Of a stretch of 64,000 bases of DNA, positions 1 through 13,609 are shown piece after piece. How positions within the stretch are numbered: position 1 is the stretch's first letter; each line of letters begins with the position of its first letter. This stretch comes from a plasmid. Location of the stretch: sequence record NZ_CP043850.1. One strand, written 5' to 3'. The notes below the pieces were generated by a model that saw nothing but the letters and a program-made list of their open reading frames with translations, searched no databases and was not told the DNA's origin. The position numbers and the translations under genes are program-made.

Positions 1-389
1 GCGGGCCGACCGCCCCGCTGACGCGGGGCCTGGGCGCGCTCCGCGCGCCGGTTGGGTGCCCCTCCCGTTGAGTGCCCCGGCGTACAGCGGGGCACGGCGG
101 GCGCTGACGCGCCGCCGGGCGAGCTGCCAGACGGCAGGGCCTGGGACGGTGGGGGTGGGGCTGGCGCTAACACTCCCCCGGGCCGGTTCGGGCCGAACAA
201 GGGCACCCCCGCCAGGACGGCCCACACGCCCCCTCAGGCGCGGGCACCACCGATCCGGCACTCACGCCCACCGGCCCCACGAACGGCCCGCACACGCCCA
301 CACAGCCGCCCCACCCTCCCCCAACCCCCGACACGGCCCCGCCGAGGGCCGGCGCACTCCGAGCACCCCCCGGGAGGCCGAGCACACGC

Positions 390-555
390 GCGCCCGGCCC
401 CGACGGCCCGACCGGCCCGGACGGCCCGACGGCGGCCCGGGCCGGGCGGCGGCCCGGGCCGGGCGGCGCGACCGGGCGCACGGGACGCCGCACCACACAC
501 CACACCACACACACGCCACACCCCACGCCATAAACCACGCCACACCCCCAGTAGA
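390..555. repeat. GC-rich direct-repeat tract (GACGGCCCG repeats; GGCGGCCCGGGCCGGGC x2) followed by a CA-rich tract with CACGCCACACCCC x2
   Basis: Direct reading of repeats at 400-470 and 490-552. The tract is non-coding and lies immediately upstream of the first promoter cassette. Confidence 0.5.
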
Positions 556-650
556 CACCCCCTCCCCAAACATGTATTGTTAGACACGTTGGAGGGCACC
601 GCCCACCACACCCCCGCAGGGCCCATCAGGGGCCCCGCACCCCACCCCAA
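553..650 (+). promoter_or_regulatory. Promoter/leader cassette copy 1 (−35 TAGACA 553-558, −10 TATTGT 576-581, GTTAGACA box, leader hairpin GGGCCC-atcag-GGGCCC 619-635)
   Basis: Member of an 11-copy conserved element. A 17-nt spacer separates −35 from −10. The hairpin is followed by CGCACCCC and the RBS AAGGAGG. Confidence 0.6.
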
Positions 651-660
651 GGAGGACATC

Positions 661-1446
661 ATGTTCCAGTTCACCGCTCAGGCCCTGTACCGCGCGCTCG
701 ACGTGGCCGGCATGCCGGCTCTGAAGGCCACTCACGACGCGCGGCCGGCCTTGCACCACGTGCAGGGGGTGTTCACTGATCAGGGCCTGATCTTCACCGC
801 CACGGACCGGTACCACGCGGTGCGTACCGTGGCCGCGTACGAGGGTGAGGCTCCCACGCACGGCCAGGGGGCCCCGGAGGTGCTGATCCATCGTGAGGGC
901 CTCAAGCGCCTGCTGCCGATGCTCAAGGCGGCCAAGTCCGCCCCGGCGACGGTGGAGGCCGACGCGGACGCGGTGGTCTTCACCGTGGGGGGCCAGAGCA
1001 TGCGCTTGGAGAACGCCGCCGGGGACGGCATGGACTTTCCCCGCGTGGAGGCGCTGTTCCGCCTGCACCAGAACGCGACCCATCCCCCGCAGGCCGAGCC
1101 GTTCGTGTCCCTGAGCCCGGAGAAGCTGCAGCAGATCACCACGGTGGTCAAGCGGCACACCGGGCGCGCGATGCCCCTGCATCTGTCCCTGGACCGGTTC
1201 ACTGCGGGCAAGCCGATGAGCTGGATGCTCGGGGACTGGGCCGTGGGCATGCTGATGCCGGTGCGCAACGACGGGCCCTGCACGCACGAGAGCGAGGCCC
1301 GCCGGGACGATGGCGGCCTGAGCCGCCTGTTCTCGGCCGTGCCGCTGATGGAGGCCCCGGATGCCGCCCCCACCCGGGAGGACTCCGCGGAGGTGGCCGC
1401 CGCCCGGGCCACCACGCGCGGGACTCAGGCGTCGGTCCTCGCCTGA
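661..1446 (+). CDS. DNA polymerase III beta-clamp (DnaN)-like protein, 261 aa (the ORF-track N-terminal extension is rejected)
   Basis: RBS AAGGAGGACATC before the ATG at 661. The motif ATDRYHAV resembles the DnaN ATDGHRLA motif. Upstream in-frame sequence is a Pro/Arg-rich repeat translation. Confidence 0.4.
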   Translation: MFQFTAQALYRALDVAGMPALKATHDARPALHHVQGVFTDQGLIFTATDRYHAVRTVAAYEGEAPTHGQGAPEVLIHREGLKRLLPMLKAAKSAPATVEADADAVVFTVGGQSMRLENAAGDGMDFPRVEALFRLHQNATHPPQAEPFVSLSPEKLQQITTVVKRHTGRAMPLHLSLDRFTAGKPMSWMLGDWAVGMLMPVRNDGPCTHESEARRDDGGLSRLFSAVPLMEAPDAAPTREDSAEVAAARATTRGTQASVLA

Positions 1447-1455
1447 TCCTCACGG

Positions 1456-1503
1456 TCCGCGCGGGGCGGGACTGGCCACGGGGCCGGTCCCGCCCCGCGC
1501 GGC
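1456..1503 (+). terminator. Long GC hairpin (CGCGCGGGGCGGGAC..GTCCCGCCCCGCGCG) downstream of CDS 661-1446
   Basis: Near-perfect 15-bp inverted repeat seen directly. There is no U-tract, which is common in high-GC Actinobacteria. Confidence 0.5.
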
Positions 1504-1512
1504 GTCGCCGGG

Positions 1513-1595
1513 TTGCACCCTCCCCCCGATATGTGTATGGTTAGACACGTCAGCAGGGGGCGCGAGGCCCCCGGCACCCCCATCAAGGAGAGCCC
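1513..1595 (+). promoter_or_regulatory. Promoter/leader cassette copy 2 (−35 TTGCAC 1513-1518, −10 TATGGT 1536-1541, hairpin GGGGGC-gcgag-GCCCCC 1556-1572)
   Basis: Conserved cassette with a 17-nt spacer. Confidence 0.65.
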
Positions 1596-1596
1596 C

Positions 1597-1854
1597 GTGG
1601 ACACCGAGACCATCTGCACCTCCGCCACCGTCACCATTGGCCAGCCGGTCACCTACGTCGATCACCGCCTGGAGGGCGGGTCCATCCGCTTCCACGACGG
1701 CGTCGTGACCGCCATCGACCCGGTGGCACAGACCTTCGACATCGCCATCACCACGTTCATGCGCGGCCGCCACACCATCACCGTCTGGGATCAGTGGCAC
1801 GGGGACGGCCTGCCCTACGCCATGCCGGCCGACGAGGCCCCCGCGGCCGCCTGA
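1597..1854 (+). CDS. Small hypothetical protein (85 aa, GTG start)
   Basis: RBS AAGGAGAGCCCC before the GTG at 1597. Follows cassette copy 2 and has a terminator hairpin downstream. Confidence 0.5.
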   Translation: MDTETICTSATVTIGQPVTYVDHRLEGGSIRFHDGVVTAIDPVAQTFDIAITTFMRGRHTITVWDQWHGDGLPYAMPADEAPAAA

Positions 1855-1874
1855 GACGCCCGTCGGGGCGGGGG

Positions 1875-1955
1875 TTGCACCCCCGCCCCGGTAGATGTAT
1901 AGTTAGACATATCGCAGGGGGCACGAGGCCCCCCGCATCCCCCACTGGAGGTTCA
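1875..1955 (+). promoter_or_regulatory. Promoter/leader cassette copy 3 (−35 TTGCAC 1875-1880, −10 TATAGT ~1898-1903, hairpin GGGGGGC-acgag-GCCCCCC)
   Basis: Conserved cassette. The −35 overlaps the terminator hairpin of the preceding gene (CGCCC-gtcgg-GGCGG). Confidence 0.65.
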
Positions 1956-1956
1956 C

Positions 1957-2286
1957 ATGTCCCACGCCGCCCGCTCCGCCCGCTCCCCCCGCGCCGCCCA
2001 CCTGGCCCGCACCCTCACCGTCGGCCTGCAACGCGCGGCCCGCACGAGCTCGCAGGTGCTGCTCTACGGCTCCACCCTCCTGTTCGCCGGGATCTTCACC
2101 GGCCTGATCCACGTGAACATCTCCCTGCTGCCCCCCTCCGCCCTGTGGGCCCTGGCCGCGTGGTGCCTCATGGTGATCGCCTTCCTGGGGCTGAGCGTTG
2201 GCAGCGTCTGCGCCCGCATCATGCTCACCCTGGCCCGCGGCGGCCGAGGCCTCGCCCGCCGCGCCTGGGACGCCTCGCGCGTCTGA
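1957..2286 (+). CDS. Small membrane protein (two predicted TM helices)
   Basis: RBS CTGGAGG before the ATG. Two hydrophobic stretches are visible in the translation. Confidence 0.55.
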   Translation: MSHAARSARSPRAAHLARTLTVGLQRAARTSSQVLLYGSTLLFAGIFTGLIHVNISLLPPSALWALAAWCLMVIAFLGLSVGSVCARIMLTLARGGRGLARRAWDASRV

Positions 2287-2317
2287 CCCCCCGCCCTCGC
2301 GGCCCGCGCGGGCGGGG

Positions 2318-2425
2318 TTGCATCCCCCTCCCATACGTATATAGTTAGACATGTCCAGGGGGATTGCCTCGGACACCACGCAGGGCCCACCAGGGGCCCG
2401 GCACCCCGAGAGAAGGGACGCCCAT
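2318..2425 (+). promoter_or_regulatory. Promoter/leader cassette copy 4 (−35 TTGCAT 2318-2323, −10 TATAGT ~2340, hairpin GGGCCC-accag-GGGCCC)
   Basis: Conserved cassette with a longer leader. The preceding terminator, CCGCCC..GGGCGG, overlaps the −35. Confidence 0.6.
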
Positions 2426-2426
2426 C

Positions 2427-2756
2427 ATGGCGAACGCGATCAAGATCACCACCGACGGCACCACCACCACCGAGACCGTCAACGGCCTGCAGGACTTCCA
2501 GAAGCACGTCGAGGGCTGGGTCGAGGCCCTCGGCGCCGACGACGGCCGCCACATCTTCTGGTTCAACGAGGAGGGCAAGGTCAACGGCATGGCCGCCAAC
2601 GACAAGGCCCACCGCCTGGTCCACGAGCTCGTGACCGGCCTGTCCCCGTGGGACGTGATCGTCGGCCCCGTGCTGATCACCGGCCCGCTGGCCGCCGACG
2701 GCGAGCACTACGAGGCCCCGGCCGCGGAGATGCTCGCCCGGTTCGACCTGGCCTGA
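2427..2756 (+). CDS. Hypothetical protein (109 aa)
   Basis: RBS GAGAAGGGACGCCC before the ATG at 2427. ORF-track frame 2364..2756. Confidence 0.55.
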   Translation: MANAIKITTDGTTTTETVNGLQDFQKHVEGWVEALGADDGRHIFWFNEEGKVNGMAANDKAHRLVHELVTGLSPWDVIVGPVLITGPLAADGEHYEAPAAEMLARFDLA

Positions 2757-2871
2757 CCGGCCCAGCCTCGGCGGGCGGTCCCGAGAGGGGCCGCCCGCCC
2801 CGGCGGCGGCCGCCCGCGCGCTGGCCCGCGAGCGCAGGCCAGCCGGCGCGCCCGGCGGTCCCGGGCGGGGT

Positions 2872-2955
2872 TGCCCCGCCACCCTGATACGTGTATGGTT
2901 AGACACATCGCGGGGATCAAGAGGATCCCAGCACCCCGAGTGAAGGGACGGCCCG
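2872..2955 (+). promoter_or_regulatory. Promoter/leader cassette copy 5 (−35 TTGCCC, −10 TATGGT 2895-2900, hairpin GGGATC-aagag-GATCCC 2914-2930)
   Basis: Conserved cassette. The hairpin shows compensatory stem changes relative to the other copies. Confidence 0.65.
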
Positions 2956-2957
2956 TC

Positions 2958-4121
2958 ATGGCCACCATCGAGATCACCCCGGCCGCCGTCGAGGCGGACC
3001 TGCTCCTGACCCCGTTCGTCGTCGTCGGACAGCTGCGCGCCCCGGGCCACTGCCAGGCCTGGATGGACTCCACGGACCGGGTCTGCTCCACGGCCACGGA
3101 CGGCCACCTGTGCCCCCGCCACCGCACCGTGGCCCGCAAGCGCCGCGCCCGGCGCCTGGCCGAGATCGAGGCCGAGCAGACCAAGGACCGGGCCGCCAAG
3201 GCCGCCGCGGCCGAGCGCGCTCGCGGACGCCTGGGGGGCAACCGCCGCGAGCTGGCCGCCGTCGAGGCCGAGCTGGCCCACCTGTCGGCCGTGCCCGTGG
3301 ACGACCGGGCCGCCGCCGGCGGGGCCGTCCATCCCTCCATCGCCCGCCGCATGGACGCCTCCCTCTCCGAGACACGTGTCGCCAAGGGCCAGCGCCTGAC
3401 CCGCCGCGCCGAGCACCTGCGCCAGCAGATCACCCTCGCCGAGTCCTGCCCCCCACCCCCGGCCCCCGCGCCCGGGGAGCCGGGGGCCGCCCCTACTCCC
3501 CCGCGCCGCACCCTCTACCAGCGCCTGCGCACCCTCGCCGAGCGGCTGAACGATCACGCCGGCGCCGAGATGATCACCCCGCGCGCCCTCGCACAGCTCG
3601 AGCACCTCCCCGCCCGTGACGCGGCCCTCGGCGGACTTGTCCTGGCTGTGGCCGACCGCAGCGGCGAGCACGACCCCGCACACGTCTACGTCACCACCGA
3701 TCGCGCGCTCGCGGGCCACTTCGCCGGCCACCACGCCGCCGGGCCCGCCGGCGGGGCCCTCTACGCCGTCCAGCCGGCCGGGCCCCTCACCCCGGACCCC
3801 GACTTCCCCACCGTGGGGATGCGCTGCCCGTCCGCGACGATCCTCTCCAGCACGCCTGCCACCCCGTGGCAGAACCCCCATGCGGATAAGCCGTACACCA
3901 CCTGGCAGGACCGCCGCAGCCCCATCTACGCCCCCGACGGCCACGCACTGCCCTCCCCCTCGGCCGCGCGTCTGGGCGTCACCGCCGAGGACCTGCACCA
4001 CCTCGGCCCCTGGCCCGAGCTCAACCAGATCAACCGCGCCAGCCACGCCGTCATCCTCACCCTTCGCCCCGGCATGACCCACGAGGACATCGCGCGGATG
4101 AACCGCCGTTTCCAGGCCTGA
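2958..4121 (+). CDS. Hypothetical protein (387 aa) with an N-terminal Cys cluster (possible zinc ribbon) and an Arg/Ala-rich coiled region
   Basis: RBS GAAGGGACGG before the ATG at 2958. Motif CQAWMDSTDRVCSTATDGHLCPRH. Confidence 0.55.
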   Translation: MATIEITPAAVEADLLLTPFVVVGQLRAPGHCQAWMDSTDRVCSTATDGHLCPRHRTVARKRRARRLAEIEAEQTKDRAAKAAAAERARGRLGGNRRELAAVEAELAHLSAVPVDDRAAAGGAVHPSIARRMDASLSETRVAKGQRLTRRAEHLRQQITLAESCPPPPAPAPGEPGAAPTPPRRTLYQRLRTLAERLNDHAGAEMITPRALAQLEHLPARDAALGGLVLAVADRSGEHDPAHVYVTTDRALAGHFAGHHAAGPAGGALYAVQPAGPLTPDPDFPTVGMRCPSATILSSTPATPWQNPHADKPYTTWQDRRSPIYAPDGHALPSPSAARLGVTAEDLHHLGPWPELNQINRASHAVILTLRPGMTHEDIARMNRRFQA

Positions 4122-4126
4122 CCAGC

Positions 4127-4168
4127 CGCGAGCGCCGGCCGTCCGAGCATGGGGCGGCAGCGCTCGCG
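4127..4168 (+). terminator. GC hairpin (GCGAGCGC..GCGCTCGC) after CDS 2958-4121
   Basis: Inverted repeat seen directly. It precedes the −35 of the next cassette. Confidence 0.45.
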
Positions 4169-4176
4169 GCCGGCGG

Positions 4177-4262
4177 TTGCACCCCCTCTCCGATATGTGT
4201 ATGGTTAGACATATCGCAGGGATCGAAAGGATCCCCGCACCCCCGACCGAAGGGACGGCTCC
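4177..4262 (+). promoter_or_regulatory. Promoter/leader cassette copy 6 (−35 TTGCAC 4177-4182, −10 TATGGT 4200-4205, hairpin GGGATC-gaaag-GATCCC)
   Basis: Conserved cassette. Confidence 0.65.
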
Positions 4263-4263
4263 C

Positions 4264-4581
4264 ATGGCCCAGAACACCACCCCCGCACCGACCTCCGCGA
4301 GCGCGCGCGCCGTCGAGGCCCTCCTGGCCGACCCGGAGCACCTGCGCTCCACCCTCACGGCCCTGGTCCAGCGCGCGGCCTACCTCACCGCCGCCATGCA
4401 CTGGGACGCCCAGGACAACGTCGGCAGCTCCGAGTGGATGGCCGAGTCCCTCGCCCACGTCCTGCCCAGCGCCGAGATCCCCACGATCCTCGCCGAGGGC
4501 GGCTTCGACCTCCCCGCGTCTTCCATGGAGCCCTACCTGACCCGCTACATCCCCGCCGCACCCCCCGCCCACGTCTACTGA
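4264..4581 (+). CDS. Hypothetical protein (105 aa)
   Basis: RBS GAAGGGACGG before the ATG at 4264. A terminator hairpin follows at 4588-4626. Confidence 0.5.
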   Translation: MAQNTTPAPTSASARAVEALLADPEHLRSTLTALVQRAAYLTAAMHWDAQDNVGSSEWMAESLAHVLPSAEIPTILAEGGFDLPASSMEPYLTRYIPAAPPAHVY

Positions 4582-4929
4582 CCCCCACCCGTCCGCGAGC
4601 GCCGGCCCCCTCCCGTGCTCGCGGACGGGCACGGAGGCGCAGCCGGTAGCGTGCGGGTGTGCGCCGGCTCTTCTCATGGGGCCACGGGGGCGCGGGCACC
4701 CCGTGAGGGGCCACGCCCGCGCCGCCACACCACCCCCACCCCAGACAACGGACCCCCTGGAGGAGACCACCCATGAGCACCCCACCGCGCGCTCGCGGTG
4801 AGGCTCCGCCCGCGGCCGGATCTCTCCGCCGAGGGCGTCGGCGGCACCAGCTGATGGCCGCCGGCGCCCGCAGGGTCAAGGGGACGTGTCGCCAAGAGGC
4901 CGGGGCTGCCGGCGAGGTCGTCCCGCGTG

Positions 4930-5012
4930 TTTGACTCAACCCCCTTGTGGTGTATAGTTAGACACGTCGCAGGGGGCATGAGGCCCCCAGCATCCCGAGC
5001 CATGGAGGCCCC
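4930..5012 (+). promoter_or_regulatory. Promoter/leader cassette copy 7 (−35 TTGACT 4930-4935, −10 TATAGT 4953-4958, hairpin GGGGGC-atgag-GCCCCC)
   Basis: Conserved cassette. Confidence 0.65.
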
Positions 5013-5013
5013 C

Positions 5014-5670
5014 ATGAACGAGAACGTTCTGACCCGCACCGAGCTGGAGCTCACCCTGACCCTCGGCAGCCTGACCGCCCGCCACGGACGCCCTGGCGCC
5101 TTCGTCGAGCTGCAGTCCCTCTCCGATGCCACCGGCGGGATGATCCTGCGCGTCAGCTCCACGGACGGCCTGGAGTGGTCCAGCTCCCACACCAGCCTGG
5201 TGAGCATGGGCTCGCCCCTGCCTCGGGTCGCCCTGGACTACCCCGGCCTGACGCGCCTGAGGAACGGCGTGCGCGCCGCGGCCGACCTGTGCGGATGGGT
5301 CCGTCTGCGCGCCGACGAGCACACGCTGCAGCTGCTCGCCGACGGAGACCACATCCCGGAGTCCGAGCGCATCCTGGCCACGGCCCCCAACCACGCCAGC
5401 GCGCACCCTGCCCCGGCGCAGCCCCGGCCGGTCGCCCCCGTGAACTGCCCTCCCCTGCCGGCGCGCACGTCCCTTCCGGCCGGCCCCCTGGCCGACCTCA
5501 CCTGCCACGTCTCCGAGCACGCGCTGCTGAACCTGCACGGCACCGGAGACCCCCGCCTGGTCGGCTGGAGCCTCGGCGTCACCAGTCACGGGCAGATGCT
5601 CGCCCAGGACCTCACCAGCACCCGCTACCCGGGCGAGGCCGCCCACCTGCGCCGCCTCGAGGCCCTCTGA
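5014..5670 (+). CDS. Hypothetical protein (~218 aa)
   Basis: RBS GGAGG before the ATG at 5014; an alternative ATG lies at 5002. A strong terminator hairpin follows at 5680-5712 (CCCCCGCGC..GCGCGGGGG). Confidence 0.5.
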   Translation: MNENVLTRTELELTLTLGSLTARHGRPGAFVELQSLSDATGGMILRVSSTDGLEWSSSHTSLVSMGSPLPRVALDYPGLTRLRNGVRAAADLCGWVRLRADEHTLQLLADGDHIPESERILATAPNHASAHPAPAQPRPVAPVNCPPLPARTSLPAGPLADLTCHVSEHALLNLHGTGDPRLVGWSLGVTSHGQMLAQDLTSTRYPGEAAHLRRLEAL

Positions 5671-5714
5671 CCCAGCCCCCCTGCCCCCGCGCCGGACGCG
5701 CGCGGGGGCGGGGG

Positions 5715-5798
5715 TTGACCCCTCCCCCATAGGCGTGTATGGTTAGACACATCGCAGGGGGCATGAGGCCCCCGGCACCCCGAGCAAGGGAGAGCCGC
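5715..5798 (+). promoter_or_regulatory. Promoter/leader cassette copy 8 (−35 TTGACC 5715-5720, −10 TATGGT 5738-5743, hairpin GGGGGC-atgag-GCCCCC)
   Basis: Conserved cassette. Confidence 0.65.
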
Positions 5799-5799
5799 C

Positions 5800-6054
5800 A
5801 TGGCCACCATCAAGTCCCCCGGCACCTGGGTCGATCTCAACGGGCAGGTCACCTGCCTCACTCACGCCCCCATGTCCTTGACCGCCCGCCTCGAGGAGCG
5901 CCCCCGCCTGCGCACGGTCACCACGACCACCACCGTCTGGAGGAAAATCACCGCGACCATGATCACCGCCTGGGCCAACGAAGTCGGGAGCCTGACCCAG
6001 GCCTTCGGCCTGGCCACCTGCGAAGTGTGCCGCCGCAAGACCCCGGCACGCTGA
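5800..6054 (+). CDS. Small Cys-containing protein (84 aa); paralog of CDS 7359-7613
   Basis: RBS AAGGGAGAGCC. Shares NLNGQVTC..HAP.SL..LE and a C-terminal TCE.CR motif with CDS 7359-7613. Confidence 0.6.
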   Translation: MATIKSPGTWVDLNGQVTCLTHAPMSLTARLEERPRLRTVTTTTTVWRKITATMITAWANEVGSLTQAFGLATCEVCRRKTPAR

Positions 6055-6067
6055 CCACCCTCGAACC

Positions 6068-6098
6068 CGCGAGCGCCCCCGAGGGGCGCTCGCGGGCT
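6068..6098 (+). terminator. Perfect hairpin GCGAGCGCCCC-cgag-GGGCGCTCGC
   Basis: Inverted repeat seen directly, downstream of CDS 5800-6054. Confidence 0.5.
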
Positions 6099-6203
6099 CG
6101 GCCTCCAGCGAAACAGGGGACCCCGACTAGGCCCCTCATCAAGGCTTATCCCAGGGCCACGCCGATCAACGCGGCCCGCTTCGTCCCCTATGGAAGGAGT
6201 GCC

Positions 6204-6692
6204 ATGTCCAACCCTCGCCCCAACTCGGAGATGCAGCCGGAGGCGCCTGCGCCGAGAGCGCAGGCCGACTGGGGGCAGTGGGGCCGGCGGGCCACGGCGA
6301 CGGCCCAGGGGATAGTCGTGGTGGCCACCCTCGTCCTGGGCACCATCGCTGCCTTGCAGACCCATGAGGGAGACACGCAGCTCGCCGACCTGGGGCGGGC
6401 AGCCTTCATCACCTTCTACTGTGGCGGGATCAGGGCATTCCTGAGTCTCTATCCCGCAGGTCGTGATCGGCTCCCCTGGTCCCTCCCCGCGCTCCTAGGC
6501 GCACCCGCTGGCGGCTGGCTCTTCATGCACCCAGATCTGTACCGCCAGATCCTCCCGGACCCGTTCGTCGGCATCCCCCCGGGGCCCGCCACATGGGCCG
6601 CCTTCGGGTTCTCGACCGTACTGTTCATCGGTGTGACCCTCCAGGACCTCCTCACGAGGAGAGGTCAGCCAAAGCCGGAAGCCGGGCGCTGA
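6204..6692 (+). CDS. Membrane protein (162 aa, multiple TM helices); lacks its own cassette promoter
   Basis: RBS GGAAGGAG before the ATG at 6204. Hydrophobic segments are visible. It is an in-frame sub-ORF of ORF 5739..6692. Confidence 0.45.
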   Translation: MSNPRPNSEMQPEAPAPRAQADWGQWGRRATATAQGIVVVATLVLGTIAALQTHEGDTQLADLGRAAFITFYCGGIRAFLSLYPAGRDRLPWSLPALLGAPAGGWLFMHPDLYRQILPDPFVGIPPGPATWAAFGFSTVLFIGVTLQDLLTRRGQPKPEAGR

Positions 6693-6726
6693 TCTCCACC
6701 GGCGGAGACGGTACCTGCGAGCCTGG

Positions 6727-6811
6727 TTTGACTCCCCACCCTCATACGTGTATAGTTAGACATATCAGCGGGGGGCACCAGGCCCCCGGCACCCCCACCA
6801 AGGAGACCCCC
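6727..6811 (+). promoter_or_regulatory. Promoter/leader cassette copy 9 (−35 TTGACT 6727-6732, −10 TATAGT 6751-6756, hairpin GGGGGC-accag-GCCCCC)
   Basis: Conserved cassette. Confidence 0.65.
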
Positions 6812-6812
6812 A

Positions 6813-7102
6813 TGGACGACTACTGGGAGCAGATCGAGATCACCGAGGCAATGCTGCGCCTCCACGCCCCGACCACCGCCCAGGGCGTGATCGAGATCCT
6901 GCGCGCACACGACCCCCAGCAGACCGGCATCGCCGGGGACGCGTTCTACTCCGGCGCCAACGCCGGCCACTCCCTGATCGGCACCCTGGAGCAGTCCGGC
7001 TGGGAGATCACCTTCTGGAACGCGCACTACCACTATGGGCTGTCCTATCAGGGCGGCACCGAGCGGCTGCGCTACGTCGAAGGCGACGTCTACACCGGCT
7101 GA
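6813..7102 (+). CDS. Hypothetical protein (96 aa)
   Basis: RBS AAGGAGACCCCC before the ATG at 6813. A terminator follows at 7105-7140 (GGGTGCGCCCC..GGGGCGCACCC). Confidence 0.5.
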
Positions 7103-7271
7103 CCCTCAGGGTGCGCCCCACCAGAGGGGCGCACCCCACCGGCCAACGGCCCACGCCCGCGCTCGCGGCCACCACGGCCGCCTCCGCAGAGACCGACCCT
7201 CCGCAGCCACCCCCACCATGACGCCGCCCGCACACATAGACCCAGACCGGCACTCGCGGTCCACGGGCAGG

Positions 7272-7357
7272 GTTGCACCCACACCCCCCGATGTGTATTG
7301 TTAGACATGTCAGCAGGGGCCATCAGGGCTCCCGCACCCCCATCCACAGGAGGACAC
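7272..7357 (+). promoter_or_regulatory. Promoter/leader cassette copy 10 (−35 TTGCAC 7272-7277, −10 TATTGT 7295-7300, hairpin GGGGCC-atcag-GGCTCC with a G-U wobble pair)
   Basis: Conserved cassette. Confidence 0.65.
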
Positions 7358-7358
7358 C

Positions 7359-7613
7359 ATGAGCGAGACCCCCGCCACCGCGACCTGCGCCGCCTGGTCC
7401 AACCTCAACGGGCAGGTCACCTGCCCCGCCCACGCCCCCACCTCCCTGGCCGCAGCCCTGGAACGCGCCCCCCGCGCCCAGCAGATCCGCACCGACGACG
7501 ACCTCTGGACCCGCATCACCGCCGAGGACCTCCAGCTCATGGCCGCCTACCTCAACGACCCGGACCAGGCCCGACAGATCTACACCTGCGAGACCTGCCG
7601 CCACACCACCTGA
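7359..7613 (+). CDS. Small Cys-containing protein (84 aa); paralog of CDS 5800-6054
   Basis: RBS ACAGGAGGACACC. Shared motifs with CDS 5800-6054. Confidence 0.6.
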   Translation: MSETPATATCAAWSNLNGQVTCPAHAPTSLAAALERAPRAQQIRTDDDLWTRITAEDLQLMAAYLNDPDQARQIYTCETCRHTT

Positions 7614-7700
7614 GCTCCCCTGCGCACGCCCCGCGCCGCGCTCGCGGCCGGTGGGGGGCACACTGAGACCTGATCTACCCAGACCGCCCAGGAGAGACCC

Positions 7701-9047
7701 ATGGACCAGACACAGGGGCCGGCCCGGTACCACACACACTTCTACGACGTCGCCGGGGCAGATCATGGCGGCGTCGCCCGCCGGCACGGGCTGCTGCCGG
7801 CGCCCATGACACCTCAGGAGCTACAGGAGCAGCCGGCCCTGCTGCGTGCACGAGGGCACTCCCACCGGGACTCCGTACTGATGCCTGCCCTGTCGCCCGT
7901 CCCCGTTGTCTACTTCCTCGTCGGGGCCGCGCTGTTGGCTTTGGCCCTGCTCTTGGATACCCCGTCCGGGCCTGCCTTCTGGACCGCCTGCGGGCTGGCC
8001 GGGGTGATGATGCTGCTGCCGATGCTGATGTGGGCTGCACAGGGGATCTACGCTGCCCGCCAGGCCAGGATTCGGACCCTGATCCGCGCACGTCTGGGCG
8101 ATGACCACCAGCTCCAGCAGCGCCGCGCCCACGTCCGCTCCCATGGGGCGCTGCCGGCGGCTCTGATCGCCGGAAGGGACCAAGTGCTGCCGGCCAGCGA
8201 TGACCCCGTGGTGCTCCAGCGCCTGGCCCGCACCAGCGCAGACCTGATGAACACCTCCCCACACCTGCCCGTGCTCGCGGTGCTGGTCTCGGCCGACACC
8301 CCCCTGACCCTGCGCCAGGTCCAAAACCGCGCCGAGCACGGCCTGACGGCCACGCCCCGGAAGGCTGTCCGGGCAGCGTTGGAGCAGATGGAGCAGAACC
8401 GCTGGGTGCTCACCGACTGGGAATCCAAGCCCCGCACCTACCAGGCCAACCGGGACCGTCCCGGCTTCGTGCAGATGCTCCAGCTGCTGAGCCTGGACAC
8501 CAACACGGCCGCCTTGCTCCCCCAGGACCAGGCCCCGCTGACCCCAGCCACCACCGCAGGACAGGACCCTGACCTGCTGGCCCGCGCCCAGACCCTGGAC
8601 CTGCACAACCTCAACGACAGGATGTTCTTCGAGGTCGTCTTCGCCCAGCAGATCCCCCTGCTCGGACTCCACGAGCAGCAGAACGCCCGACAGCTAGCCG
8701 CCGCCGTCGCCGCCGTCGAGCAGCTCATCTCCTCCACCGCCCACGCGGACCCTACCGACGAGCTGGCCACCACCCTCCAGCAGCTGCGCTCCCGGCTGCG
8801 CATGACCACCGACGAGCCCTCCATGGGCGCTCACCCGATGATCGCGCTCCAGGCCCTCACCGCCGAGCACAACGCCCAAGCGATCGAAGAAGCCATCGCC
8901 CAGATCCGCGCCCGCCACCACGACATCGCCGCCACCGTCTGCGCCGACGCACTGCACACCCATGCACGCGCCCTGCGTCAGCTCATCGCGCAGATCCACG
9001 ACCAGCCCGACATGCAGCCCCTGCTCGCCCAACTGGACACCCCCTGA
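7701..9047 (+). CDS. Hypothetical membrane protein (448 aa, two N-terminal TM helices)
   Basis: RBS CAGGAGAGACCC before the ATG. Hydrophobic segments at residues ~65-120. Confidence 0.55.
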   Translation: MDQTQGPARYHTHFYDVAGADHGGVARRHGLLPAPMTPQELQEQPALLRARGHSHRDSVLMPALSPVPVVYFLVGAALLALALLLDTPSGPAFWTACGLAGVMMLLPMLMWAAQGIYAARQARIRTLIRARLGDDHQLQQRRAHVRSHGALPAALIAGRDQVLPASDDPVVLQRLARTSADLMNTSPHLPVLAVLVSADTPLTLRQVQNRAEHGLTATPRKAVRAALEQMEQNRWVLTDWESKPRTYQANRDRPGFVQMLQLLSLDTNTAALLPQDQAPLTPATTAGQDPDLLARAQTLDLHNLNDRMFFEVVFAQQIPLLGLHEQQNARQLAAAVAAVEQLISSTAHADPTDELATTLQQLRSRLRMTTDEPSMGAHPMIALQALTAEHNAQAIEEAIAQIRARHHDIAATVCADALHTHARALRQLIAQIHDQPDMQPLLAQLDTP

Positions 9048-9074
9048 CCGCCCCCCTCTGCCAAGGAGGCCACC

Positions 9075-9596
9075 ATGCGCACCCGCCACCTGCCCCTGAT
9101 CCCCCTGACCGCCGCCGCGCTCGCGGTCTGCGGCTGCGGGGTCACCGCCACCACCGACCCTGCACCGTCGGAGACGACGGCACCCCCCAGCACCTCAGCA
9201 GCCCCCGCCGGCCCCGTCGACCTCGAGATCCTCGTGCAGTGGGACCCTGCCGATAAGAAGAACACCGCGCCGGTCTCCGGCGGGGCCAACCTCTTCGTCG
9301 ACGGACGCGCCGCCGGCGTCCACACCCGCCAGAGCATCCCCTCCACCATCGGCGGGGCCGACCCCCTGATCCTTCCCACGCAGGCCGACCCGGGAGAGAG
9401 CGTGCAGGTGATCGTCAGCACCTCCCAGCTGGACTACCCCGGGGAGCTGACCTGCCAGATCCGCCTGGCCGGCACGGACACCATCCTGGCCGAGCACTCC
9501 GGCAACGACGAGGACATGCCCATGACCGAGTGCTCAACCACTGCCCCCGCCACCGTGCCCGCCAGCCTCCCGGCGACCAGTACCCCCCAGCCCTGA
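9075..9596 (+). CDS. Lipoprotein (signal peptide with lipobox LAVCGC)
   Basis: RBS AAGGAGGCCACC. N-terminal signal peptide followed by a lipobox Cys. Confidence 0.6.
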   Translation: MRTRHLPLIPLTAAALAVCGCGVTATTDPAPSETTAPPSTSAAPAGPVDLEILVQWDPADKKNTAPVSGGANLFVDGRAAGVHTRQSIPSTIGGADPLILPTQADPGESVQVIVSTSQLDYPGELTCQIRLAGTDTILAEHSGNDEDMPMTECSTTAPATVPASLPATSTPQP

Positions 9597-9627
9597 ACCC
9601 GGCACCACCCATCGAAAGGAACCACCC

Positions 9628-10647
9628 ATGAGCCTGAACCCGCACCTGATCACCATTGCCAGCGTCCTGGCCGCCGACGGGCACTCCGCCTCGGCCCAAG
9701 ACCTGCGGCAGGCGTTGCCGCGGTTCTCCCGCCGGGACGAGATCCTCCAGGAGCTCACGAATCAGCAGTGGATCATCCCCACCGTCGCGGACCGGTACAA
9801 GCTCAACGACGCCCGCCCGGGCATGGACGCCCTCAAGGAGCTGCTCGCCACCACCGCCGACACCCCCGCCCCGCCGGCCACCGCAGACCGCCACCTCAGC
9901 ACCACCGAACAGCAGCAGCAGCACCGTCAGCACTCCGTCATCGCCGCCGCGGACGCCAAGACCCTGCCGTTCATCCCCGAACCCGACGACGCCCCGACAC
10001 TGCTGACCCAGGAGCTGCGCCAGCGTCGCCGCCGGATCTACCGCAGCATGGCCATCCCCAACCAGCTGGAGCACCAGTACCAGCTCCTCTACAGCGACCT
10101 CCGCCACGAGCGCGGCCGCGACTTCATCCACCTGTTCGGACACCTCGAAGAAGAGCTCAGCAGCCTCCCGGCCGAACACCCCGACCCCCTGCGCGAGCTC
10201 GTCCGCCTGACCCTGATCGCCGACCACAACGCCGGCGTCTTCGCCCGCTACGGCGCCCGAGTGAGCGAGGCCGCCCGCCTGGGCCGCGAGCGCTCGCGGG
10301 TCGACGACGCCCTGGCCCAGTGGGCCACCGCGCAGCTCGATCCCAGCCCCACCCCGGAGATGCTGGGCCTGCACTCGGAGCACGACAAGATCACGGCGGC
10401 CCAGCAGCGTCGTAAGGTGCTGGCCACGATCGAGGCGTCCGAGCCGAACCTGATCCACCACGGCGGCATGCCCGCGGACTCAGATCTGGGCCACGGCGGG
10501 GACTACCTGCTGGCCCAGCTGCTGCTGGATCACGGGCGCCGGCTGTTCACGGCCCTGGAGGACCTGGCCTACACCAGCGAGCGCGTGCAGCAGTACGTGG
10601 ACGGGCTGCGCACCCACTCGGATGAGGACTTCAAGCACTCCCGCTGA
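9628..10647 (+). CDS. Hypothetical protein (339 aa)
   Basis: RBS GAAAGGAACCACCC before the ATG. No recognisable domain. Confidence 0.55.
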   Translation: MSLNPHLITIASVLAADGHSASAQDLRQALPRFSRRDEILQELTNQQWIIPTVADRYKLNDARPGMDALKELLATTADTPAPPATADRHLSTTEQQQQHRQHSVIAAADAKTLPFIPEPDDAPTLLTQELRQRRRRIYRSMAIPNQLEHQYQLLYSDLRHERGRDFIHLFGHLEEELSSLPAEHPDPLRELVRLTLIADHNAGVFARYGARVSEAARLGRERSRVDDALAQWATAQLDPSPTPEMLGLHSEHDKITAAQQRRKVLATIEASEPNLIHHGGMPADSDLGHGGDYLLAQLLLDHGRRLFTALEDLAYTSERVQQYVDGLRTHSDEDFKHSR

Positions 10648-10659
10648 GTCGTAGCACAC

Positions 10660-10696
10660 ACAGAGGCAGGGACACCCGGTAGTGTCCCTGCCTCCG
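10660..10696. terminator. Bidirectional terminator hairpin GAGGCAGGGACAC-ccggta-GTGTCCCTGCCTC between convergent genes
   Basis: Perfect 13-bp inverted repeat seen directly. Confidence 0.55.
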
Positions 10697-10905
10697 CTTG
10701 ATGGCTGGAGCGGTCAGGGCTTGCGGCGCAGGCCGGACACGCCCGTGCCGTCCTCGGCCAGGCGCTCGGCGTCCTCCTGCTCTCGCACCTAAGCCTGCCA
10801 GGACGGGTCAGTGCCCCCGGCACAAGGGTGGGCCCGGCAACCACACAGGAGGAACGCCACAACACACGGCCCATGCCAGCGCCCCAGAGACATCCACGCC
10901 GGGTA

Positions 10906-11604
10906 CTACGGCGGCGTCACCTTGCCCCCCGGGGGGCGCGGATGAGCGCGACGGAGGCCGAGGCGGCTGGTGAACCTCTTCCACGCCGGCCTCTCCGCTA
11001 GACGCGCCTCAGCAGTATCGATCCGCTCCGCCAGCTCGCTCACCAGCGCATCCAAGTCCGCCGTCGCCTGCTCCACCTGCACGCAGAAATGCTCCACGTC
11101 ACGCCGGTCCGTTGACATGAGCTGCGCCAAAGAAGCCGCCAACCTGGATGGCGCGAAGGCCAGTTCGAACGCCATGGCCAGCGAGGTCAGGCGCCCGACC
11201 TCATGACCATGATTCCCCTTCATCTCCTGGGCCCACCTGTGCATCGACCATGCGTCCTGGTATTTCACCCTCCACTGAGTCAGAACCTCTAGCACCCGTC
11301 CCTCGTTCGCGGCGTGGCTCAGCTGCACCGCACTCACGGCGAATCCAGCCATGGGGGACCCCTGGCTCTCGTCGGTAGGGTCTACATCAGGGTCCCTGAG
11401 ACGGTGTAGTTGCCCGGACATGCCGGCTACGGCTTCTGCTGCCCGCGTGCTCCGCGCCGTCCGGTCTGCCGCCTGCACGGTGAACCTCGCCACCGACCAT
11501 GCAACAACCCCCGAGCCGAGCGCGCCGATCGCTGCGCCGACGGCCGCCCCGAAGAACCCGTCCCACAGCGCCGGCCCCTCGGCCGCCCACACGATCCAGT
11601 CCAT
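10906..11604 (-). CDS. Hypothetical protein (232 aa) with an N-terminal hydrophobic segment
   Basis: Longest ORF in the region. The RBS is weak. Confidence 0.4.
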   Translation of the reverse strand: MDWIVWAAEGPALWDGFFGAAVGAAIGALGSGVVAWSVARFTVQAADRTARSTRAAEAVAGMSGQLHRLRDPDVDPTDESQGSPMAGFAVSAVQLSHAANEGRVLEVLTQWRVKYQDAWSMHRWAQEMKGNHGHEVGRLTSLAMAFELAFAPSRLAASLAQLMSTDRRDVEHFCVQVEQATADLDALVSELAERIDTAEARLAERPAWKRFTSRLGLRRAHPRPPGGKVTPP

Positions 11605-11896
11605 GCCGGTGAGCGTACTGGGGTCGGTGTCCGATCGGACGCCCGCTCACGGGGCCGTCACGACCTGTGGCGCGCGGGCCCAGGGGAGGCCCGAAGCCCT
11701 CCCCAGGCACATCGTGCGGGGATCGGCGAATGGCCGGCCCTGCCGGCCCGTGTGGTCTGGAGCAGCGGGGCGATCAACTCCCACTGGGTGTCGGAGAGCA
11801 TCTGGAACCGGGGCGTGTCTTCGAGGGTGTCAGCCGACCCCTGGATTCATTGTCAGACACGCCCTAGCGCGCGACCTGCACCATGTCTTTGTTCTC

Positions 11897-12262
11897 CTAG
11901 ACCTCCAGCGCCTCCTCCACCAGCCGCACCGACTCCCGCTCCGCGTTCTCGTACCGTCCGAAACCGATGGCGTCCGGGTCCAGCCGGCCGGCCTTACCAT
12001 TGGGACCCAACAGCGCCTCAGTCAGCTCCACAACCCGCTCGACGCCATCGTGGAAGAACACCCGGAAGCGGGCATCGTAGGGCCGACCGTTCTTGAGCAT
12101 CTTCCAGCCGCCGTCCAACACCAGCGCGATCTCGTGCCCGGTGGCCAGGTCGAACCACCAGCGCCCGACCCGGTCTTCATCCAACATCTGGAACTGTCTC
12201 TGCGCATCGGCCTTGACCCAGGCCCGGTTCCATCCCTCGCTGCCGCCCCTGATCCACTTCAC
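11897..12262 (-). CDS. Hypothetical protein (121 aa, GTG start)
   Basis: RBS GGAAGGGAG before the GTG. Confidence 0.45.
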   Translation of the reverse strand: MKWIRGGSEGWNRAWVKADAQRQFQMLDEDRVGRWWFDLATGHEIALVLDGGWKMLKNGRPYDARFRVFFHDGVERVVELTEALLGPNGKAGRLDPDAIGFGRYENAERESVRLVEEALEV

Positions 12263-12329
12263 CTACTGCTCCCTTCCTCACGCGCACACAGGTCTTCCCT
12301 GCAACAGGCCAGTATCCCCGCCGCCATCC

Positions 12330-13088
12330 TCACGCACACGACGCCAGGACCTGCTGCATCGCCGCCCGCTCAGACACGCTCACGCTCAACCCCCACTTCG
12401 CCTTCACCTTCACCTGCCGGCCGACCAGATCGCACCTGGCGGCCGCGCTCGCGGGCAGCCATTCGTCGGCGGAGTGGTCGGACTTGGCCTGGTTGGTGGG
12501 TCCGTCGACGGCGAGCAGGTTGTCCGTGTCGTTGGCGAACTGCTCGCGGCGCTCGGGGCTCCACTGGTCGGCGCCGGAGTCCCAGGCTTGGGAGAGGGAG
12601 ACGATGTGGTCGATCTGCACAGCGGTGGGGTCCGCGGAACTGAACGCGATGATCCCTCCGGTGTAGGGGTCCTCGAGGGTGCCCTCGAGCACCTTGCAAC
12701 CGTGGGTGCCCGGCTTGATCACCGTCTCGCGCAGGTCCCGGCGCAGGACATCGTTGCGCTGATCACAGCCGTTGCGATCCGTGTCCGCCCAGCGTTGTCC
12801 GAAGGCCTCGCGGGCGTAGGCGGTGGAGGGTCGGTACTCGGTGATGGGCAGCAGCTCAAGCTGTTCGGCAGCGGGGCCAGCCGCAGGCGCCGCGCCTGCC
12901 TGACGGTCTCCGGCCGGCGACGGCGTGGTGCCCACCAGATCGTTGAGCACCTCGGCACCGGGGATCTTCCCTCCGACCGTGACCCGGTCCAGACTCAAGT
13001 CCTCCAGCTGGCCGGCGCCGAGGGCGCCGAGCAGGCCCACCCCTGCCAGGGCAACGGCAGCTCCTGAGATCCACCTCTTGATGCTCAT
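12330..13088 (-). CDS. Secreted DUF1524-family (HNH/GmrSD C-terminal-like) nuclease
   Basis: Strong RBS GAGGAGG. N-terminal signal peptide. Motifs DTDRNGCDQRND..DPYTG..IDHIVSL..NDTDNLLAV..NQAKSD..W are typical of DUF1524. Confidence 0.55.
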   Translation of the reverse strand: MSIKRWISGAAVALAGVGLLGALGAGQLEDLSLDRVTVGGKIPGAEVLNDLVGTTPSPAGDRQAGAAPAAGPAAEQLELLPITEYRPSTAYAREAFGQRWADTDRNGCDQRNDVLRRDLRETVIKPGTHGCKVLEGTLEDPYTGGIIAFSSADPTAVQIDHIVSLSQAWDSGADQWSPERREQFANDTDNLLAVDGPTNQAKSDHSADEWLPASAAARCDLVGRQVKVKAKWGLSVSVSERAAMQQVLASCA

Positions 13089-13174
13089 CGTCTCCTCCTC
13101 ATCTTCCAGGCCCTCACCTGGTCTGCCGCGACGTCGAGCCCGCGGTGGTCCTCTCCGAGCCGGCGCGTCGGTGC

Positions 13175-13606
13175 TCAGTGCTCGGGCTTGGGCACAGCCT
13201 CGATGCGGGCTTGCACCCCGTGCTCCACGCGCAGTCGGCGGGCAGCCTCGGCGGTGGCCGAGCGGTGCAGCTCGACGGGGATCTGGGCGACGCCGTCGCC
13301 CAGATCCGGCTCGGCCATCTCCGGCAGCCAGTGGTAGAACGAGCCGCGGTCGGAGTAGGTGAGCATCAGCGCTGCGCCGCTGGCCCCATGGACCTGCAGG
13401 GTCTCAGCGACCAGACCGGCGACGAGCTCCTCGCGGTAGTCCTCGAGGCGGGTCAAAGCGGTGTCGATCCACCCCCAGTCCCGCGGCGGGTTCTTCCCGA
13501 ACTCCCACCGCGTGATGTTCTGCTCCCGGACGTCCAGGGTGTCCGCGAGCGCATCGCGGGAGAGTCCGAGGGCTTCTCGGCGGCACTTCATCTCGATCGC
13601 GTTCAT
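13175..13606 (-). CDS. XRE-family helix-turn-helix transcriptional regulator
   Basis: N-terminal HTH CRREALGLSRDALADTLDVREQNITRWEFG. Sits in an operon with the upstream small ORF behind cassette copy 11. Confidence 0.65.
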   Translation of the reverse strand: MNAIEMKCRREALGLSRDALADTLDVREQNITRWEFGKNPPRDWGWIDTALTRLEDYREELVAGLVAETLQVHGASGAALMLTYSDRGSFYHWLPEMAEPDLGDGVAQIPVELHRSATAEAARRLRVEHGVQARIEAVPKPEH

Positions 13607-13609
13607 CGC

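Follow-up and report, generated by a model that had tools for sequence, protein, structure and literature searches.

A repeated promoter and leader-hairpin cassette with a candidate operator in the terminal region of a linear plasmid from Micrococcus luteus

Ten genes near one end of a 64,000-nucleotide (nt) stretch of plasmid DNA (record NZ_CP043850.1; the whole stretch is referred to below as the window) are each preceded by a copy of the same compact element, which raises the question of whether this element works as a promoter, as a protein-binding site, as an RNA structure, or as all of these at once. The window represents one end of a linear plasmid of Micrococcus luteus, about 92 kilobases (kb) long and of the terminal-protein type, and the array begins about 0.5 kb from a telomere-like end. 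The initial annotation had described ten cassettes of promoter and structured leader, and this layout was indeed read in every copy. The overall interpretation that we arrive at, to which we give an even chance, is an operator-gated regulon of the terminal region whose transcripts carry a cis-acting RNA leader hairpin.

The window contains 11 occurrences of the GTTAGACA box, whereas shuffled sequence leads one to expect 0.19. Ten copies lie on the plus strand, starting at 579, 1540, 1902, 2344, 2898, 4204, 4957, 5742, 6755 and 7300, and a single one on the minus strand at 13923-13930. The corresponding cassettes, modules of about 85 base pairs (bp) each, are found at 552-7361 (ten, plus strand) and 13958-13877 (one, minus strand). 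Each opens with a -35 hexamer (TTGCAC, TTGACY, TTGCAT or TTGCCC in the array, with TAGACA in copy 1), followed after a spacer of 16-17 nt, or of 18 nt in copy 11, by a -10 hexamer (TATGGT, TATAGT or TATTGT; TAAGGT in copy 11), the last two bases of which open the GTTAGACA box. Downstream of the box follow YRTC(A)GCR, a 6-bp GC stem, a 5-nt loop ending in AG, the return stem, NGCAYCCC, a Shine–Dalgarno (SD) sequence and the start codon. A covariance model (R1), suggested at the outset as a check on the array, was built from the cassettes; it recovers the same 11 copies, with no further match in 64 kb, together with cassettes in Micrococcus linear plasmids (see below). A weight matrix of the 21-nt box likewise returns these 11 copies.

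All ten array cassettes are on the plus strand. Cassette 1 (552-663) carries its -35 hexamer TAGACA at 552-557, the -10 hexamer TATTGT at 575-580, the box at 570-590, an insertion of about 25 nt, the hairpin at 619-635 (GGGCCC/GGGCCC), the tail at 636-643 and ATG at 661, ahead of gene 1 (661-1446). In cassette 2 (1513-1599; -35 at 1513-1518, -10 at 1536-1541) the hairpin GGGGGC gcgag GCCCCC at 1556-1572 is followed by the tail and by GTG at 1597 (gene 1597-1854), and in cassette 3 (1875-1959; -35 at 1875-1880, -10 at 1898-1903) the hairpin at 1917-1933 precedes ATG at 1957 of a membrane-protein gene (1957-2286). Cassette 4 (2318-2429; -35 TTGCAT at 2318-2323, -10 at 2340-2345) shows a TGTCCAGGGGG stub and an insertion before its GGGCCC hairpin at 2383-2399 and ATG at 2427 (gene 2427-2756). 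Cassettes 5 (2871-2960; -35 TTGCCC at 2871-2876, -10 at 2894-2899) and 6 (4177-4266; -35 at 4177-4182, -10 at 4200-4205) both use a GGGATC stem, GGGATC aagag GATCCC at 2913-2929 and GGGATC gaaag GATCCC at 4219-4235, with ATG at 2958 (gene 2958-4121) and 4264 (gene 4264-4581), respectively. Cassette 7 (4931-5016) has TTGACT at 4931-4936, a 16-nt spacer, TATAGT at 4953-4958, a hairpin at 4972-4988 and ATG at 5014 (gene 5014-5670); cassette 8 (5715-5802) has TTGACC at 5715-5720, its -10 at 5738-5743, a hairpin at 5757-5773 and ATG at 5800 (gene 5800-6054). Cassette 9 (6728-6814; TTGACT at 6728-6733, -10 at 6751-6756) forms its hairpin, with loop accag, at 6771-6787 before ATG at 6812 (gene 6812-7102). 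In cassette 10 (7273-7361; -35 at 7273-7278, -10 TATTGT at 7296-7301) the stem GGGGCC/GGCTCC at 7316-7332 includes one G-U pair, and ATG lies at 7359 (gene 7359-7613). The stem variants of the initial annotation, and the positions given for them there, are correct. Gene 7359-7613 probably forms one operon with the cassette-less genes 7701-9047, 9120-9593 and 9673-10644.

The promoter part of the cassette is of a conventional kind. Across 64 cassettes the -35 element begins with TTG in 60 and the spacer measures 17 nt in 53, with TANNNT as the -10 element, in agreement with housekeeping sigma-70/SigA promoters (TTGNNN, 16-18 nt, TANNNT). A strict scan with the Escherichia coli consensus, which is not an actinobacterial one, passes only four of the ten window copies; this low number is attributed to the deviation that is expected of actinobacterial -35 boxes. 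The context of the -10 element is less conventional. The GTTAGACA box, initially described as an invariant setting of the -10 hexamer, is more than that: it is the right half of a dyad of about 20 bp, AYRTGTAT-GGTT-AKACAYRT, that overlaps the -10/+1 region and is doubled at a divergent operon (see below). A single dyad centre, TGTATGG|TTAGACA, was found in the 21-nt box, with 55% complementarity over 10 pairs compared to a median of 25% elsewhere, and positions +/-5 to +/-8 are 69-98% complementary. The arms are a perfect 9 bp in some Micrococcus copies, e.g. GATGTGTAT-GGTT-ATACACATC. In the lineage of plasmid pLMV7 the box differs and is still symmetric (CATGTAT-GCTT-ATTCATG), and a dyad with 8-9-bp arms sits at the promoter core of all cassettes, as in a repressor regulon.

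The divergent operon at 13175-13879 (minus strand) encodes an 89-amino acid (aa) protein (13879-13610) and a 144-aa XRE-type helix-turn-helix (HTH) protein (13609-13175). Its promoter is cassette 11 (13877-13958, minus strand), with a -35 hexamer TTGAAA at 13958-13953, two overlapping boxes at 13954-13934 and 13939-13919, the -10 hexamer TAAGGT at 13934-13929, and ATG at 13879. The upstream box (13954-13934) lies in the spacer and not at the -10 position. The hairpin of this copy is a different one, of 7 bp (13919-13903), and lacks the canonical tail. Two boxes, 14 bp apart, are also present at the promoter of the corresponding pair in pLMA7 and pCW.Ay, and the pair of hypothetical and HTH genes is syntenic and divergent beyond the run of cassette genes in pLMA7, pCW.Ay and pSGAir0127; the two window proteins are 51% and 78% identical, respectively, to their pLMA7 counterparts. 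Since the dyad is doubled at the promoter of this XRE-HTH operon, the box is probably a repressor operator, an assignment that we hold with good confidence. A symmetric box at every promoter that is doubled at the regulator operon further suggests a dimeric, autoregulated repressor, for which the protein encoded at 13609-13175 is the best candidate; it would then bind at all array promoters. Its own profile matches are the generic HTH_3/HTH_31 families only. Next to the regulator operon, at about 12330-13090 (minus strand), the annotation of sister contig L184 places a GmrSD_C (type IV restriction-like) gene, which puts a defence gene next to the candidate repressor.

Turning to the leader, the hairpin was evaluated by covariation. 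When 20 cassettes were aligned with MAFFT without guidance, 98.3% of the stem cells were paired, compared to 88% in column shuffles and at most 80% with slid partners; ten cells show double-sided changes, and the covariation score was reached by none of 500 shuffles. The first MAFFT hairpin alignment (A1) was replaced by a model-guided alignment because 7-bp and 6-bp stems were out of register. The latter, which is biased toward structure by construction, comprises 64 copies (60 distinct) with 96.9% of cells paired, double-sided changes at five of six pairs (54 cells) and 12 extra pair types. At least 14 distinct stems of 6-7 bp occur, including GGGGGC, GGGATC, GGGCCC, GGGGCC, GGGGTT, GGGCTC, GGCCTC, GGGCGG, GGGTGG, GACGGC, GGGGTTC, GGGGATC and GGGGTGC. 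The proposal that the stem is selected for pairing rather than for sequence is therefore upheld by covariation in both alignments. The strand that folds can be specified as well: G·U cells outnumber A·C cells by 13 to 3, and the hairpin always has the sense of its gene, whichever DNA strand bears the cassette. Both observations identify the folding strand as the transcript or, formally, the sense DNA strand, in line with the earlier suggestion of an RNA (or single-stranded DNA) hairpin, and we consider it very likely that the hairpin works as RNA.

The hairpin dominates the predicted fold of every leader, with a possible 2-bp GC extension past a 1x1 mismatch that is a real outer helix in distant relatives, and the SD sequence is mostly open. 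The flanks are nearly invariant, GCR before the hairpin and the NGCACCCC tail after it, and loop positions 1-3 vary freely between unrelated classes such as AYGAG, ACCCG and CACCG. A role of the tail as anti-SD sequence was rejected, as the predicted pairing amounts to 3 bp (CCC/GGG), is too weak for sequestering and occurs only in copies with a GGGA-type SD. That the motif would be new was anticipated and is consistent with the searches made: Rfam 15 gave no match at the gathering threshold, and for the cassettes none even at E <= 1; the literature on Micrococcus linear plasmids does not mention promoters or leader hairpins, and the box sequences are absent from the roughly 8 million papers searched.

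Promoter and leader are separable, a point that the initial annotation had missed. The distance from hairpin to start codon is 23-28 nt in all ten array copies, and that from box to hairpin is 7-8 nt in eight of them; in copy 1 (32 nt) and copy 4 (31 nt) the insertion of about 25 nt sets the two apart. In pLMV7, a unit of hairpin, tail and ribosome-binding site occurs without a promoter (L078, 7320-7358), and, conversely, one box promoter lacks the standard hairpin (L190, ~6850-6950). Because the distance to the ATG is fixed and the modules occur apart, hairpin and tail go with the messenger RNA (mRNA) and the region in which translation is initiated, and not with the promoter, the 5' end or any DNA landmark. 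The insertions in cassette 1 (587-618) and cassette 4 (2352-2382) each fold into an extra 5'-proximal hairpin; in copy 4, the initial 11 nt of an earlier leader, TGTCCAGGGGG, are still present. The two insertions resemble the scars that recombination between cassettes would leave.

The same design recurs on related plasmids. In the plasmid collection, DNA in common with the window was found only in four Micrococcus linear plasmids, pLMA7, pCW.Ay, pSGAir0127 and pLMV7. Within the plasmid stretches searched, and at E <= 0.01, R1 detects nine cassettes at the left and two at the right end of pLMA7, 11 in pCW.Ay, six in pSGAir0127, and 19 at the right and six at the left end of pLMV7, with scores of 21-79 bits, most of them above 60. 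All are terminal (the right-end pair of pLMA7, for instance, falls in the last 7 kb), and the replication and transfer backbone is free of cassettes. The terminal regions of all four relatives share the layout of co-oriented small genes. Cassette gene families are common to the plasmids, in shuffled order and at only 28-64% identity, and orthologous cassette genes bear different hairpin stems in different plasmids. The family of the candidate regulator is small (20 clusters). Around its more distant members, with regulators 45-50% identical and 60-67% GC, the -35 element, a box of the TGTA type, a hairpin that differs and is bipartite in some cases, the CGCACCCC tail and the ribosome-binding site are kept. 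In one such distant relative, the stretch ahead of an HD-domain gene (L194, ~5740-5860) is filled with AGTACT-rich short tandem repeats, for which the window has no parallel. A composite-pattern scan of the genome collection returned 105 stretches, 80 of them tabulated, and is uninformative on host range. The sole genuine match among its stretches above 60% GC is identical to a pLMA7 cassette and lies on a 383-nt contig of coverage 0.9 in a Streptomyces sabulosicollis assembly (L100). Together with a regulator fragment named "Escherichia coli" (P0010), it most likely represents Micrococcus contamination of those data sets, as both are tiny low-coverage contigs in assemblies of unrelated species.

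Window positions 1-185, at the plasmid end, form a telomere-like chain of six short GC palindromes, each with a loop of 3-4 nt, to which sister contig L184 adds 45 nt (L184 1-230); we take this chain to resemble the foldback telomeres of terminal-protein linear replicons. Three sister assemblies stop within a few hundred bases of the window start point. By exact-protein look-up, the array was located on four long contigs, at 300-700 bp from a contig end; one of them is CP039423.1 (92,619 bp). The source names attached to these proteins are those of M. luteus plasmids. The mid-window backbone encodes RepA, ParA, a VirB4-like ATPase, a cell-wall hydrolase and Tad/type II secretion-type genes, with no cassette among them. 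The telomere-like end, the location near contig ends and this backbone together identify the array as the terminal region of a conjugative-type linear plasmid, a setting that the initial annotation had not recognised. Thus, the earlier view that the array is not a chromosomal operon was right, and its host element is a plasmid accessory region; the suggested affinity to phage arrays was not borne out. No match to the cassette was found in the phage collection searched, and a phage origin was rejected, as a scan of viral contigs gave 75 chance-like single matches and none with the composite pattern. The presence of 5' terminal proteins on Micrococcus linear plasmids has been established experimentally (PMC2974207), and end-first transfer was proposed for such plasmids with a type IV secretion system (T4SS; PMC11707576).

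On this basis, the following course of events is proposed. Each array gene or short operon would be transcribed from its own promoter of housekeeping-sigma type, the -10 element and predicted start of which lie inside the dyad, where a plasmid-encoded dimeric repressor, with the XRE-HTH protein as the best candidate, would bind. All array promoters would then be switched together. We infer that they are repressed in the established plasmid and transiently de-repressed, for instance when the plasmid reaches a new cell. The transcript is predicted to begin about 7-9 nt 5' of the GC hairpin, followed by the single-stranded NGCACCCC tail and, 23-28 nt past the hairpin, by the start codon. The hairpin would thereby act in cis as a structural 5' block at the upstream edge of the ribosome-binding region. 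Most likely, it would guard the mRNA from 5'-end-dependent decay (RNase J/E) and standardise translation initiation for unrelated coding sequences. We assign such a stabilising or translational role only tentatively, at slightly less than an even chance.

Several observations weigh against this proposal. With regard to the leader, the hairpin is predicted to lie 7-9 nt from the 5' end (31-32 nt in copies 1 and 4), farther than in classical 5'-terminal stabilisers; this distance is itself a prediction, since the start site was deduced from the promoter. A plain stabiliser leaves the conserved sequence of the NGCACCCC tail and the 3' G of the loop unexplained. The leader fold energies are unexceptional for their GC content (z -0.3 to -1.6), and hence the support for the hairpin comes from evolution and not from thermodynamics. 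Moreover, many cassettes are related by duplication, so that the cell counts overstate the number of independent events. With regard to the operator, part of the box conservation could reflect promoter function, as the left half of the box overlaps the extended -10 region and the right half the start site, and symmetric co-variation of the outer arms is seen mostly between lineages and is absent within the window. The link to the repressor consists of synteny and the doubled boxes, and the pLMV7 HTH homologue (23% identity) has no box at its own promoter. This homologue, too diverged and without a box, was dropped as a test of operator-regulator co-variation.

Among the alternatives, the conserved tail speaks most directly for one in which hairpin and GCACCCC tail form an RNA operator for a trans-acting plasmid factor, either a repressor of the T4 RegA or coat-protein type or an antiterminator of the lambda N/nut type, adding a second tier of control. 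Because the tail is conserved in sequence, this alternative accounts for it better than a stabiliser does, and the tail is also the most conserved feature in distant relatives. A stem that is free in sequence and preserved in pairing, between nearly invariant flanks, is typical of protein-recognised RNA hairpins; the loop measures 5 nt and has a conserved last base, the strong post-gene hairpins (see below) could serve as conditional terminators, the leader of the regulator operon itself is devoid of the canonical hairpin and tail, and the uncharacterised 89-aa protein co-transcribed with the HTH regulator could be counted in its favour. Still, scans of Pfam, PHROG and NCBIfam found no RNA-binding or N-like protein, and loop positions 1-3 are free, with several unrelated loop classes. 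The flank that is conserved, NGCACCCC, lies 3' of the hairpin, no boxA-like sequence is present, and one long antiterminated transcript would make the private promoters redundant. We regard an RNA operator as unlikely, if worth keeping in mind.

A somewhat less probable alternative, which we rate as doubtful, dispenses with a dedicated repressor: a strong promoter and leader would have been spread or homogenised by duplication, recombination or gene conversion, with the box serving as promoter only and the hairpin being generic. In its favour, cassettes are more alike within a plasmid than between orthologous genes, and plasmids or their ends have typical stems (GGGGTTC at the right and GGGCGG at the left end of pLMV7); the recombination scars in the leaders of copies 1 and 4, the shuffled gene order and the coincidence of the left dyad arm with the extended -10 region can be read in the same way. 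What copying would not provide is symmetry over 8-9 bp on each side, including bases past the start site for which a promoter has no use, or tandem boxes specifically at the regulator operon, one of them in the spacer and off the -10 position. Nor does it account for a design that is kept with different sequences where the regulators are only 45-50% identical, and compensatory stem changes require selection on pairing, not copying alone.

The location at the end of a linear plasmid, with T4SS genes on these plasmids and end-first transfer proposed (PMC11707576), invites the further idea that the hairpin acts in single-stranded DNA, either as a signal for priming or recognition on the strand displaced in end-first conjugative transfer or in replication primed at the telomere, or as a recombination site resembling the attC of a cassette system. 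G·T wobbles are tolerated in DNA too, GTTAGAC matches the GTTRRRY consensus of integron cores, and the cassettes are reshuffled from one plasmid to another. Yet the orientation of the hairpin follows the gene and not a replicon strand, with both strands used at one end, and its distance is fixed to the start codon, not to a DNA landmark. The element lies 5' of genes and bears a promoter, unlike attC, the box variants GTTATAC and GTTTGAC break the GTTRRRY consensus, and no tyrosine recombinase was found among the roughly 40 window open reading frames (ORFs) scanned, all of which renders a DNA-level role very improbable. Least probable of all is a promoter-proximal pause or attenuation element, for example one based on first-ribosome coupling or on Rho loading at the C-rich tail: a GC hairpin followed by a C-rich, G-poor stretch directly before the ribosome-binding site would suit it, as would the activity of M. 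luteus Rho on structured GC-rich RNA, but there is no U-tract, the C-rich stretch of about 8-15 nt is far below the length of a rut site, and the predicted folds contain no alternative antiterminator or anti-antiterminator pairing.

The operator-gated regulon with a cis-acting leader hairpin can be placed among known systems. Its logic resembles that of plasmid global regulons, actinophage repeats and 5' untranslated region (5'-UTR) stabilisers, by analogy; what is new is that promoter, operator and covarying leader are fused in one cassette and reused 10-25 times at linear-plasmid termini. The KorA/KorB system of RK2 (IncP) and ArdK/StbA/KorA of R388 (IncW) likewise place one palindromic operator over the core of many promoters under a plasmid-encoded, autoregulated regulator (a candidate in the present case), and control establishment, maintenance or accessory genes. 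In contrast, the present system resides on an actinobacterial linear plasmid with terminal proteins, has an XRE-type HTH candidate and 10-25 copies at the ends, and includes an RNA leader module that those systems lack. Actinophage repeats (phiC31 early promoters, cluster A stoperators, cluster K start-associated sequences) are also near-identical sequences before small genes in high-GC mobile DNA, some bound by a single repressor and some placed relative to translation starts. Here, however, there is no sequence match to phage records, the replicon is a conjugative-type plasmid (RepA, ParA, T4SS/Tad), and promoter, operator and covarying hairpin form one unit.

On the RNA side, the E. coli ompA stem-loop, the Bacillus subtilis aprE leader and the T7 gene 10 leader share a stable 5' stem-loop upstream of a strong SD sequence in which structure counts over sequence; the cassette differs in its longer predicted 5' single strand (7-9 or 31-32 nt), its conserved C-rich tail and its reuse 10-25 times per replicon. 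Lambda nut is comparable in its short hairpin with a 5-nt loop and adjacent conserved single-stranded motif after early promoters, with hairpin "terminators" downstream, but the cassette has no boxA, its hairpin precedes the tail, no N-like protein was found in the scans, and there is one site per gene, not per operon. Leading-region islands (Frpo/ssi, anti-defence genes) are similar in having small co-oriented uncharacterised genes at the part proposed to enter first, with DUF3846 present here as well. Unlike Frpo/ssi, the cassette promoters are duplex ones, the -35 and -10 elements of which lack a complementary partner arm, some -35 elements merely falling, in local folds, into loops of upstream hairpins, and genes of the ardA, klcA, psiB or ssb type were not recognised in the general scans. 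Finally, integron arrays differ in that the present element stands 5' of genes with a promoter, and the ORFs scanned include no tyrosine recombinase.

The initial annotation had further assigned each gene its own terminator. A strong GC hairpin of 10-21 bp does follow immediately 3' of nine of the 11 array genes, but none has a U-tract, and a terminator scan found no T-tailed intrinsic terminator on the plus strand of the array, so the canonical form is absent. The hairpin after gene 1 has 21 bp (1457-1502, plus strand); the others, on the same strand, lie at 1863-1891, 2289-2317, 2770-2799, 4125-4170, 4588-4629, 5673-5717, 6066-6096 and 7109-7136. Several hold the next -35 element in their loop or 3' arm, as for cassette 3, the -35 hexamer of which (1875-1880) is inside the loop of hairpin 1863-1891. 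These structures might terminate transcription, like the debated U-less terminators of actinobacteria, or stabilise 3' ends. Many are built from CCGCGAGCGC/GCGCTCGCGG arms. If its complement is counted as well, the 10-mer GCGCTCGCGG has 18 occurrences in the window, compared to 1.4 expected, with 17 of the 18 in the first 13.6 kb (2826-13552) and one at 30085; some fall inside coding sequence. All the plasmids show an enrichment of this 10-mer in their array regions (L076-L078, L190-L192), and in pLMA7-type cassettes it stands exactly 28 nt upstream of the box. As its sequence, and not structure alone, is conserved, the 10-mer may be a protein-binding or recombination site.

With regard to the products of the cassette genes, scans of Pfam, PHROG and NCBIfam leave most of them uncharacterised and identify gene 4 as DUF3846. 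Gene 1 belongs to a family of truncated homologues of the beta sliding clamp: Pfam DNA_pol3_beta domains were detected in six of 22 members, the family profile matches clamps in the PDB (E = 6e-14), and an AlphaFold model of gene 1 (predicted local distance difference test, pLDDT, 82.7) gave beta clamps for all 50 structural matches listed. The family of gene 7, with three to four paralogues per plasmid the most expanded, is distantly related to that of gene 1 (hhalign 97%, E = 9e-11). The two largest cassette gene families are hence both clamp-like (661-1446 and 5014-5670, with paralogues in L076-L078), amounting to four to five copies per plasmid. Plain sequence searches of the PDB gave no match for genes 1, 5 and 7, and only family profiles (genes 1 and 7) succeeded; the homologue search for gene 7 yielded no deep set. 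Genes 8 and 10 (5800-6054 and 7359-7613) are paralogues of 84 aa each with 43% identity and a homologue in pLMV7; their conserved "NGQVTC..HAP" motif and C-terminal CxxC suggest small zinc-binding proteins. Among the array products, the general Pfam/PHROG/NCBIfam scans recognised no anti-defence genes, only DUF3846 and clamp-like proteins.

Some further features were noted in the window. Between cassette genes 8 and 9, a 162-aa membrane-protein ORF (6204-6692) has no cassette; this slot of the array is variable, as sister contigs L185 and L186 have a 123-aa gene there. Between the telomere-like region and cassette 1, a degenerate GGCCCG/GGCGGC repeat block (387-477) forms long imperfect palindromes, and 3' of it CCACAC/CACGCCACACCCC direct repeats occupy 485-548. 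Farther inside, two copies of an IS21-type pair (IstA-like transposase and IstB) at 50786-52845 and 55900-57959, in the same orientation, surround an alpha/beta-hydrolase gene (54886-55830), like a composite transposon.

Linear plasmids of the Micrococcales are known experimentally with respect to terminal proteins and conjugative transfer, and their regulation is undescribed. The cassette delimits a regulon of 10-25 genes per plasmid at the termini, and yields a candidate operator-repressor pair along with an uncatalogued covarying RNA motif. It also accounts for the "numerous sequence repeats" that hindered the early assembly of these plasmids, and provides a small, transferable promoter/5'-UTR part for use in high-GC actinobacteria. 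If the genes prove to be induced on entry, the orientation and position of the array bear on the question of end-first transfer. A bolder version, which we consider improbable, holds that the array is the entry regulon of an end-first-transferring linear plasmid capped by terminal proteins, in which the telomere-proximal, first-entering genes would be expressed in a burst from de-repressed promoters and hairpin and GCACCCC tail would act as an RNA operator for a plasmid factor (a translational repressor or an antiterminator). If true, this regulon would constitute a two-tier DNA-and-RNA switch without a described counterpart on any plasmid, and the disputed mechanism of linear-plasmid transfer would become experimentally approachable.

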